A stretch of DNA of 64,000 nucleotides, from NCBI GenBank assembly GCA_951406725.2, contig OX597823.1:39122001-39186000 (forward strand), given 5' to 3'. Under the pieces are notes generated by a model. It had not been told where the DNA came from. It made no database searches and saw only the letters and a list, made by a program, of their open reading frames with translations. The DNA is from Octopus vulgaris. Its lineage: Eukaryota. Both the position numbers and the translations under genes were made by a program. This document shows, piece by piece, positions 54,501 to 57,500 of the stretch. How positions within the stretch are numbered: the first letter of the stretch is position 1; every line of letters begins with the position of its first letter.

Positions 54501-57500
54501 GTAACAATTCAAAGTGAATTACTCCTTTGCAATCCCACCAGATAGAGAGAAGAATCTTTTTCCCATGAAGTTCCCTTCTCGGTTGTGGTTGAACTTTTTC
54601 CCTTTTACCAAGCCGCTGTTTATGACATTTAAAATTTCAATAGAAGATCCATTTTTCGTCACCAGTCACAAGTTTATCAGTTTGCAGTTGCTTTCAGACA
54701 ATTCATGAGGCGCCCATTTTCATGAAGAAAATTTCTCACTGTAGACAAACTGTTTAAATACACCTAGGTGAAGTACAGTGAGGAATTCAGAGTACAAGTA
54801 GGGGTTCACCAAGGATTGGTCCAAAGCCTCCTCCTATTCATCTGCCCCTGGGAGCTCCTCTACGTTGATGACCTTGTTCTTATAGCTAAATCACTACCAG
54901 AACTAGAGAAGAAGTTTCAGGTATGGAAGCAAGGTCTAGAAACGAAGGGTCTTAAAGTCATTCTTGCAAAAATTTATTTCGCATTGTTCCGGCCTAACCC
55001 ATAAATTTTTATATAATATATTCCACACAATGCTTCATACTAACTATATATATATATATATATATATATATATATATCTCAGAACCTTACAGTAGTCTGG
55101 AACAACTGAATCTTAGTCAGTCAGTTGATGGGCTCTACTACTTCAAATGTTCTTAAAATTTAAATCCACAACTTTGTCTATGTATCTACCCTCTCTATAA
55201 TGTTGCTACTTGATATGAAAATTTTTGTATTAATGGAAAACCTCTATAATTGGCTGATGAGTGCTCAGCATTTTAAAACTGTTGTAATACTTACAACATT
55301 TAATAAAATGATGTAGTACGAAACGATTGTACCAAATTACCGGAGTCATTTTTGTTGCTTATTTTGAGTATATATATATATATATATATATATATATATA
55401 TACCTACACCTACACACATGCACACAAGCACATTAAGAACATATATATAATAAAGTCACATACTGTATTTTTGCAAGTATCACAGGATGGCTGTCATCAA
55501 CACAGACAGTACGACCTCTCAGCTCTTCATCTTGTATTGAATATGGCTTAAATGATGGACAGACTGCCGTACAGTTAAACTACATTAAATAGAAAAGAAA
55601 ATATTTTCTCAATTGCATTTAAAAAAAAATTTTATCTGGTAAAACTACAACAAAAACAAAACTATAAAACATTTGATAGAAAATAGTACAAATGTTGCCT
55701 TGTTTTTTTTCTTCTTTAATTTTAGGTAAAATGATTTTAAAGTTGGATAACATTTCTAGTAAAGCATTTAACAAATCCTTATAGTAAAGAAACTGAATAA
55801 AATTGAATCACACAAAGGCGAAATCTATAATTTTCCTTGATATCCTGTTTGAGAAATAATTCTTGTAGATTTAGAAGATGACTCAGTAGATATATTCTTT
55901 TTCAAATGTCTGCAACAGCATTTCAAATGCTACACCAGGAATCTCCTCTATTAACTTCAGTAAGATCCTAAATTTCATGTTGTCTGTTTCTGTCAATAAC
56001 ATCAATGTACTTGTGAGATCTTCATTAGGGCGCAGAAGTCTTCAGGCTTACTCCATGAATTTTATGGGAACTTGCTTTCCGAATAGTAACCACTTTATAG
56101 TATGTCCTTTTTTTTTCATGTAACCAGCACTAGTGAGGTTGCCGTGCAGCTTGCAAGACTACAAACCTCAAGAGCAGTGGTTTTAAGCTACAAGATCAGG
56201 GATTAAAGTATGAGAAAATGGTTGAGGGCAGAAACAGGTTACATCTATGTAACTTAGCAGTGGCTTGGGCTGGGAAGTTTTGTTTTGTGTGTTTTGTGTT
56301 TTTTTTGTTTGGGGAGGGAAATCAGGGACTTGTGCCTTCTTAGGTTTATGAGTCACCATTGTAAACCCCATCTCCTTGGTAGTTTGGTTCTTTTCTTCCA
56401 TTGTTCTCTCATCATTCCCTTCTGCTGCACTTTCTGGTCTGTCTGCTGATGTTTCCTTCGCAGCTTTTTTCTTTGTGGTACACTTGGTGCGGACATTTGG
56501 GCATTAGACTTGCCCAAATACATCAATTTATTGATGCATTTGGGCAAGTCTATGTATGTATTATCAGACAATTGCCAAAAAAAAAAATGTTTCAATAAAT
56601 TCAAAACTCTGCAAAAATCTGGTACAAATTCTTATTGGTTCAAAACATTGCTTACTTTTTACTCAAGCTGATCATCATCCTCATCATCATCATTTAACGT
56701 CCGCTTTCCATGCTAGCATGGGTTGGACGGTTCAACTGGGGTCTGGGGAGCCCGAAAGCTGCACCAGTCCAGTCAGATCTGGCAGTGTTTCTACAGCTGG
56801 ATGCCCTTCCTAACGCCAACCACTCCGAGAGTGTAGTGGGTGATTTTATGTGCCACCGACACAGGTGCCAGACGAGGCTGGCAAACGGCCACGCTCGGAT
56901 GGTGTTTTTTATGTGCCACCGACACAGGTGCCAGACGAGGCTGGCAGACGGCCACGCTCGGATGGTGTTTTTATGTGCCACCGACACAGGTGCCAGATGA
57001 GGCTGGCAAACGGCCACGATCGGATGGTGTTTGTTACGTGCCCACAGCACGGAGGCCAGTTGATGCGGTACTGGCTACGGCCACGTTCGGATGGTTTTCT
57101 TGTGTGCCACGTGCCACCGGCACTGGTACCACAAAGATACAAATTCCATTGATGTTCATCTATTTTGATTTGTTTTGATTTTCACTTGCCTCAACAGGTC
57201 TTCACAAGTGTCACAAGAAGGAAGGTATGCACAGGTGGACTGACTACGTCCCAGGTAGGGGCCACAGGTTATGGCCTGACTAGTCTTGCCGGGTCTTCGG
57301 ATGGTGTTTTTATGTGCCACCGACACAGGTGCCAGATGAGGCTGGCGAACGGCCACGATCGGATGGTGTTTGTTACGTGCCCACAGCACGGAGGCCAGTC
57401 GGTGCGGTACTGGCTATGGCCATGTTCGGATGGTTTTCTTGTGTGCCACTGGCACTGGTACCACAAAGGTACAATTCCATTAATGTTCATCTATTTTGAT

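Follow-up and report, generated by a model that had tools for sequence, protein, structure and literature searches.

Does the long-armed hammerhead motif in an EGFR intron of Octopus vulgaris owe its conserved fold to a role at that locus, or to the mobile element from which it derives? The window analyzed here is a 64,000-nt stretch of genomic DNA, and the motif lies on its plus strand at 55247-55339. An open-ended stem I (55247-55253/55332-55339) leads into a core of CUGAUGA (55254-55260) and GAAA (55320-55323), and cleavage is predicted after A55331 of the GUA^ site (55329-55331). The CUGANGA and GAAA boxes, an NUH cleavage site, three helices, and a G10.1-C11.1 pair characterize it as a type I hammerhead. 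Stem II occupies the 59 nt between the core halves (55261-55319), is far longer than the 4-bp helix II that adjoins the tertiary contact between loops I and II in fast, retrozyme-type hammerheads, and pairs in three helices (55261-55265/55315-55319, 55269-55275/55304-55310, and 55280-55287/55291-55298) below a 3-nt apical loop. All three had been named in an initial annotation of the sequence, and all fall within the minimum-energy fold of the spacer (-15.9 kcal/mol; z is -3.5, equalled by 1 of 200 shuffles). Folded as a single molecule, the whole 99-nt motif is not unusual (z is -1.8). Our hammerhead descriptor finds three motifs in the window and one across 30 Markov-shuffled windows. An Rfam search gave 57 matches at E ≤ 1, none of them to a hammerhead family, likely because of the long stem II arm.

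Two further long-armed hammerheads, with cores at 14317 (+) and 14159 (-), lie in an inverted pair of 5'-truncated element ends at 14044-14432. The shared core and CUGAUGA-to-GAAA distance reported for the 14.3-kb copy are confirmed by locating the motifs and measuring their spacers, which are 59 nt long in all three. The stem II sequences had been described as largely different, but they are homologous, being 63% identical between one copy of each of two subfamilies, compared with 50 ± 4% for shuffles. The reported change in stem I stands, but loop III differs as well, and by sequence reading stem I can be extended to UAAUUGG/CCAA(A)UUA with one bulge.

The motif had also been called solo; it is a single copy, but not a free-standing one. 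It belongs to a 292-bp insert (55077-55368, plus strand) that repeat matches, together with the endonuclease (EN) upstream in longer copies, identify as the 5'-truncated 3' end (part of the pLTR) of a Hydra-clade Penelope-like element (PLE), here subfamily A. The initial annotation had left this parent unnamed. The insert is flanked by the left (55045-55076) and right (55369-55402) parts of its (TA)n target microsatellite. In the 2.8-Gb genome (227 contigs) it is a dispersed repeat, and 40 of 40 scored copies, taken from 2,437 candidates and including the window copy, match over its full length at 95-100%. The 14.3-kb family, sister subfamily B, behaves likewise (40 scored of 1,911 candidates). 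Longer copies of both subfamilies carry upstream a Hydra-type GIY-YIG endonuclease with CxCX5C, CxxC, and CxH motifs and without CCHH, at a distance of 0.6-1.4 kb in subfamily A. The EN-bearing copies of subfamily A are partly broken, and the EN part of the frame is what was seen in them; an intact frame was not found in this subfamily. Family members also occur in runs that we guess to be RNA, as contigs that give neither strand nor ends.

Close relatives retain intact RT-EN frames of 970-1,091 amino acids with a hammerhead on either side, along with inverted truncated copies. Locus L101, for example, has hammerheads at 1583 and 6206, plus an inverted copy at 1327. Hammerhead-to-hammerhead units measure 4.6-4.7 kb in L101-L104 and 5.6 kb in L236. 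The translated frames show a single RT-EN with a C-terminal GIY-YIG domain, a CxCX5C linker, CxxC and CxH motifs, and no CCHH; DKT is present in L099, L101, and L236, RWK in L101, and RWR in L099 and L236. The insertions have a (TA)n target, pLTR tandems, inverted 5'-truncated copies, and an optional tail. A Pfam search with two full RT-EN frames gave no match. Published marks of the Hydra clade are a GIY-YIG domain with CxCX5C, CxxC, and CxH and without CCHH, and a preference for (TA)n targets (PMC8557442). Judged by motifs and layout against such descriptions, the parent is a Hydra-clade PLE. We rejected a non-LTR retrozyme, which consists of short, ORF-less tandem repeats with one hammerhead per unit, as the window copy is single and its family joins an EN frame. 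L101-L106 form a young subfamily with intact frames of 970-984 amino acids, complete pLTR-ORF-pLTR copies, and a long asparagine-rich insert separating RT from EN. At L236 (841-6441), a second Hydra lineage has identical hammerheads with an 85-nt stem II (-38 kcal/mol); they are separated by 5.6 kb, and the RT-EN region occupies two frames. The many identical copies of this lineage suggest recent activity. Fragments of other-type PLEs are found beside Hydra ends in (TA)n at L038 (2117-3193) and L022 (3-527); they comprise an RT with the start of a C-terminal EN and a GIY-YIG domain with a cysteine linker.

Published Hydra-clade hammerheads, including Hydra-1_Obim (Craig et al. 2021, PMC8557442, File S2), are likewise of type I, lie near the element 3' end, combine a 2-bp stem III with a palindromic loop, and accompany a (TA)n target and RT plus C-terminal GIY-YIG motifs. 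The spacer of 57-60 nt seen here, however, has no equal among the 25 Hydra families tabulated there, none of which (by eye) exceeds about 26 nt, and the units of 4.6-5.6 kb exceed the typical Hydra size of under about 3 kb. The asparagine-rich RT-EN insert and a hexamer inside stem II also set the window lineage apart from the Hydra elements of that account. A precedent for long loops outside Hydra is provided by two spike-moss PLE-X1 entries, whose loops of 29-35 nt were flagged as deviating (PMC8557442). The minimal metazoan PLE hammerheads (Cervera and de la Pena 2014, PMC4209133) share with ours the pLTR location, solo and inverted copies, a palindromic helix III, and a predicted dimer. 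They have a helix II of 6-8 bp and an extra base after A9, whereas here G10.1 follows directly and about 20 bp are arranged in three helices.

Conservation of the fold was scored in 12 representatives, each the modal natural copy of one cluster; of the 17 clusters, five singletons that lay near another cluster were dropped. Twenty pairs were considered, drawn from stem I, the basal and apical parts of stem II, and loop III. The middle helix was excluded, as the MAFFT alignment loses register in that region. Pairing is retained in 95% of the 240 cells, compared with 27-50% in slid controls. Double-sided changes occur in 8 of the 20 pairs against a shuffled mean of 5.0, counts that are inflated by relatedness of the sequences. 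They are found in stem I (2 of 4 pairs), basal stem II (2 of 5), apical stem II (3 of 7), and loop III (1 of 4, an A-U/G-C change). Between one copy each of subfamilies A and B, identity is 73% in the 3' core and tail and 40% at 25 fourfold EN sites, and it stays at shuffle level in five 60-nt blocks of the upstream UTR, so that stem II is more alike than either UTR or fourfold sites. When 7 nt are trimmed from each side, inner stem II has z < -2 in 5 of 12 representatives and folds no better than shuffles in the other 7. RNAalifold, run on the 12 representatives, recovered the apical helix but not the hammerhead, and added two off-pathway hairpins. The initial annotation had proposed that selection acted on the RNA fold, including the long stem II, in the parent elements. 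Covariation and the similarity of stem II support selection on the fold in these elements, but the middle helix is loosely conserved and weak in several representatives, and part of the constraint is on sequence, namely the hexamer. The 59-nt length is one value within a lineage of 57-60 nt, where length is held and pairs covary, but across lineages it varies widely.

A genome-wide pattern requiring G immediately 3' of CUGANGA and a loop III of 4 nt returned 1,536 rows with spacers of 7-32 nt (104 in the control), 1,227 with 33-47 nt (58), 18,944 with 48-70 nt (100), and 4,044 with 71-100 nt (105), which corresponds to about 24,000 long-armed motifs in the genome. A relaxed short pattern gave 90,791 rows compared with 11,177 control rows, some counted twice; short minimal hammerheads therefore remain the majority, and long arms dominate only the class with G after CUGANGA and a 4-nt loop III. 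The same count rules out a share of 94% of all hammerheads for long arms. Thirty loosely clustered long-armed families from the sampled loci have spacers of 36-93 nt, and stem II length is not fixed across lineages. The spacer folds with z < -2 in 17 of 30 families compared with 3 of 30 flanks, and the trimmed inner arms do so in 10 of 30 families compared with 9 of 90 flanks. At least three further long-armed groups are Hydra-like, with stem II lengths of 85 nt (L236), 53-54 nt, and 43 nt, the latter two having an EN upstream at 29-39% identity. No arm motif common to the long-armed lineages was seen. The genome-wide rows include a motif close to the published Hydra-1_Obim. They also include a retrozyme-like tandem array at L239 (775-2650), with a period of about 594 bp and a 70-nt stem II hammerhead per unit, and further arrays of about 534, 403, 545, and 353 bp.

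The 57-60-nt stem II, missed by Rfam, and the roughly 24,000 long-armed motifs are new in that searches of a literature body that leaves most subscription papers outside returned no title, abstract, or passage on long-armed cephalopod PLE hammerheads or on a poly(A) signal in stem II; passages of PMC13282606 mention neither hammerhead nor ribozyme. In this genome, descriptors with a short loop II overlook at least about 24,000 hammerheads, a shortfall relevant to the half cores reported as all that certain PLE families possess. Eight Naiad families, two of them from cephalopods, are labelled HHR_half_core and have core halves 35-50 nt apart (PMC8557442, File S1); they may be long-armed hammerheads.

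Stem/loop III (55323-55330, plus strand), which the initial annotation did not name, is self-complementary and could serve as a dimer interface, and the solo copy therefore lacks its partner. Within one molecule the 2-bp stem III is too weak (pair probability 0.01), and the minimum-energy fold of two window-copy molecules is a dimeric hammerhead whose stem III is shared over 8 bp and whose cores are open. Such a dimer is also the two-molecule minimum in 6 of the 12 representatives, and in the other 6 the minimum is not the active fold. Of the 30 long-armed families, 19 have a strictly palindromic loop III, and 26 do if wobble pairs are allowed. A C-to-U change at 55328 in the window copy gives two G-U pairs and weakens the loop III duplex from -10.0 to -5.8 kcal/mol, but subfamily C, in which intact frames occur, has the resulting spelling as its standard, so this change alone is not proof of inactivity. 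An alternative hairpin in which the 3' arm of stem II pairs with the cut site was dismissed as minor (3-11%).

PLE hammerheads have been reported to require dimers and to have low activity (PMC4209133); one from an anole cuts only with its protein, in an element with two internal RT starts and an uncut template (PMC11167929), and the role of PLE hammerheads is considered an open question (PMC8557442, PMC11167929). In intact parents of the window copy, cleavage would likely take place only when two copies pair via the palindromic loop III, probably with protein help. Tandem transcripts would then be cleaved slowly, in a dimer- or protein-dependent manner. All 30 subfamily A copies examined extend beyond the cut, 15 of them to (TA)n 35-45 nt past it and 15 ending at 116-144 nt; they are the best BLAST hits to a cut-spanning query, by which copies ending at the cut would be under-sampled. 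Since all 30 pass the cut site, the insertion template appears to be uncut or re-ligated, and reverse transcription would start downstream of the cut on such RNA. The anole Poseidon element PAc (Frangieh et al. 2024, PMC11167929) is similar in having two 3' ends downstream of the hammerhead, an AT-rich target, and an apparently uncut template. It belongs to another clade, and its ORF begins inside stem II, whereas in L101 the first ATG is found about 210 nt after the cut.

Stem II contains the hexamer AAUAAA (55302-55307, plus strand), a putative poly(A) signal of the element that ends 24 nt before the predicted cut. In 136 of 138 sampled copies, either AAUAAA (111 copies) or AUUAAA (25 copies) has its last base 24-29 nt ahead of the cut (24-26 nt in 134 of them), compared with an AWUAAA frequency of 2.5% in upstream windows. 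Genome-wide, one of the two lies inside stem II in 3,320 of 3,429 copies, a count that concerns one lineage and was noticed after the fact. The hexamer is present in 11 of 12 subfamily representatives; subfamilies D and E have its second base changed with no matching partner change, and its predicted pairing varies with the subfamily, from mostly paired to mostly open. A U/GU-rich tract after the cut (55346-55368, plus strand), a putative downstream element, is common to 12 of 12 representatives and reaches the nearer element end, which is used by 15 of 30 copies; hexamer and tract together have the sequence makeup of a poly(A) signal. The usual spacing between hexamer and poly(A) site would place this site about at the ribozyme cut. 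Because each end carries a pLTR and a template has to extend past the signal, some damping of it would be needed, as in the HIV-1 polyA hairpin. There, AAUAAA lies in a hairpin repeated at both transcript ends (PMC2645353); the likeness is an analogy only, as the HIV-1 hairpin has been tested and contains no ribozyme, whereas here hexamer pairing varies among subfamilies. The discontinuous Clec2 hammerhead (described in PMC6765202) also combines a large insertion with a nearby poly(A) signal, but resides in a host gene, has an insertion of several hundred bases, and cuts before the signal rather than after it.

In this lineage, the long stem II likely serves to expose or conceal the element's putative poly(A) signal. 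Tentatively, and by the HIV-1 analogy, a poly(A) signal may have become fused into the ribozyme, with stem II as a 3'-end switch between polyadenylated mRNA, a ribozyme-cut end, and read-through template RNA; although possible, we do not regard such a switch as the expected outcome. If correct, it would operate in one of the about 24,000 long-armed hammerheads missed by Rfam and short-loop descriptors. L101-L106, with their long arm, covarying dimer loop, and a hexamer 24-26 nt ahead of the cut, offer a direct test of competition among cleavage, polyadenylation, and template choice. Other lineages are arranged differently: a hexamer of a relaxed set is found just 3' of the cut in 28 of 28 copies of the 53-55-nt lineage, and a search near the hammerhead of the 85-nt lineage found none. 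The hexamer does not account for long arms in general. SECIS elements carry an AUGA...AAA...GA arrangement; we discarded a SECIS-like reading of the motif, since no in-frame UGA occurs in the intact frames and subfamily B lacks the AAA bulge.

The host gene is EGFR-like, as indicated by a Pfam GF_recep_IV match and a transmembrane exon, and minus-strand motifs between 51.6 and 39.1 kb that we take to be those of the kinase fit such a gene. A splice joint 53447-55464, found in RNA-type contigs from runs X1 and X6 (two studies), defines a 2,016-nt GT..AG intron (53448-55463, minus strand) between the last domain-IV exon and the transmembrane exon, with its donor at 55463 and the adjoining exon at 55464-55580 on the same strand. 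The motif therefore lies antisense in this intron, with the predicted cut site 132 nt from the donor, close to the 125 nt or so estimated before. CUGANGA was sought on the EGFR-sense strand of the insert and not found, which together with the splice joint bears out the earlier statement that the motif would not cut the pre-mRNA. No other long-armed copy that could act as a partner lies nearer than 41 kb within the window. In an alignment of 29 copies, the insert carries a letter other than the most frequent one in 7 of about 290 columns; five of these changes are C-to-T, and one lies in loop III.

The element identity, the pLTR-ORF-pLTR layout of intact relatives, the covariation, the conservation of the hexamer, and the element ends are established by these comparisons. 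Our overall reading, which we consider probable, is of a Hydra-clade PLE 3'-end hammerhead, antisense in EGFR, that in its parents likely cuts only as a pair and likely carries a poly(A) signal in its arm. The lone, backwards-facing intron copy is a decaying relic and probably inert, being single, without a promoter-bearing upstream pLTR or a near long-armed partner, and without a core on the EGFR-sense strand. Its structural conservation is inherited from the parent elements and does not stem from selection at the EGFR locus, and this single copy is in itself of little importance. Survival of antisense copies would be expected if sense copies harm host transcripts.

It is quite conceivable, though short of probable, that the long arm is simply a tolerated insertion and the hexamer an ordinary 3' signal that lies there by chance, with no switch involved. 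Minimal PLE hammerheads need no contact between loops I and II, so loop II would be free to grow as long as the hairpin closes, in line with the 36-93-nt spread among the 30 families, the weak middle helix, and a hexamer that is elsewhere or absent in other lineages. AATAAA or ATTAAA also appears in the printed flanks or stem I of 8 of 25 published short-looped Hydra hammerheads (by eye; PMC8557442). Mere tolerance, however, is at odds with a length held at 57-60 nt while the upstream UTR ranges from about 0.6 to 2.4 kb and loses alignability, with covariation at 3 of 7 apical pairs, and with inner arms that out-fold flanks across families. Rather unlikely, in our view, is that the arm serves mainly as a binding site for the RT-EN protein, aiding cleavage or template choice. 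The protein-dependent cleavage of the anole PLE hammerhead (PMC11167929) and the occurrence of long arms in several unrelated-looking Hydra lineages would fit such a role, but these lineages show no common arm motif, and tandem arrays with no recognized PLE frame (L239) are long-armed as well.

Mutation bias or hairpin-templated repair is a very unlikely source of the paired changes: several of them are C-G to U-A in an AT-rich genome, as bias would predict, but stem I, with arms 80 nt apart, and loop III show paired changes too, loop III takes the form of many different palindromes across families, and the unpaired catalytic core is fixed. We regard as extremely improbable that the window copy has been domesticated as an antisense EGFR regulator near the donor. 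Neither its core nor any of the 59 stem II sites has changed, and it lies about 130 nt from a used donor, but a divergence of 2.4% predicts no more than about 1.4 changes over 59 nt, the nearest long-armed copy in the window is 41 kb off, and the insert is one of thousands of similar (TA)n insertions.

Other PLE-derived sequences are found in the window. The inverted subfamily B pair lies about 16 kb past the last recognized EGFR coding exon (30.4 kb). It forms a near-perfect 389-nt palindrome (14044-14432; 96% paired, -318 kcal/mol), which if transcribed would be a long double-stranded RNA masking both hammerheads. The remnant of a Hydra-like RT, heavily decayed and sharing 21-27% identity with intact frames, follows at 15069-16088 (+). 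An intron of the EGFR kinase region contains a second inverted PLE-like pair (39243-39775) with 116-nt arms that are 95% complementary. Its minus-strand arm carries a short minimal hammerhead in EGFR sense (39301-39332, one stem I mismatch), a motif frequent among the genome rows of the relaxed short pattern; the plus-strand arm has a decayed core, and arm-arm pairing could mask the minus-strand hammerhead. At 56600-58600, GC-richer tandem repeats with a unit of a few hundred bases are seen as repeated frames.
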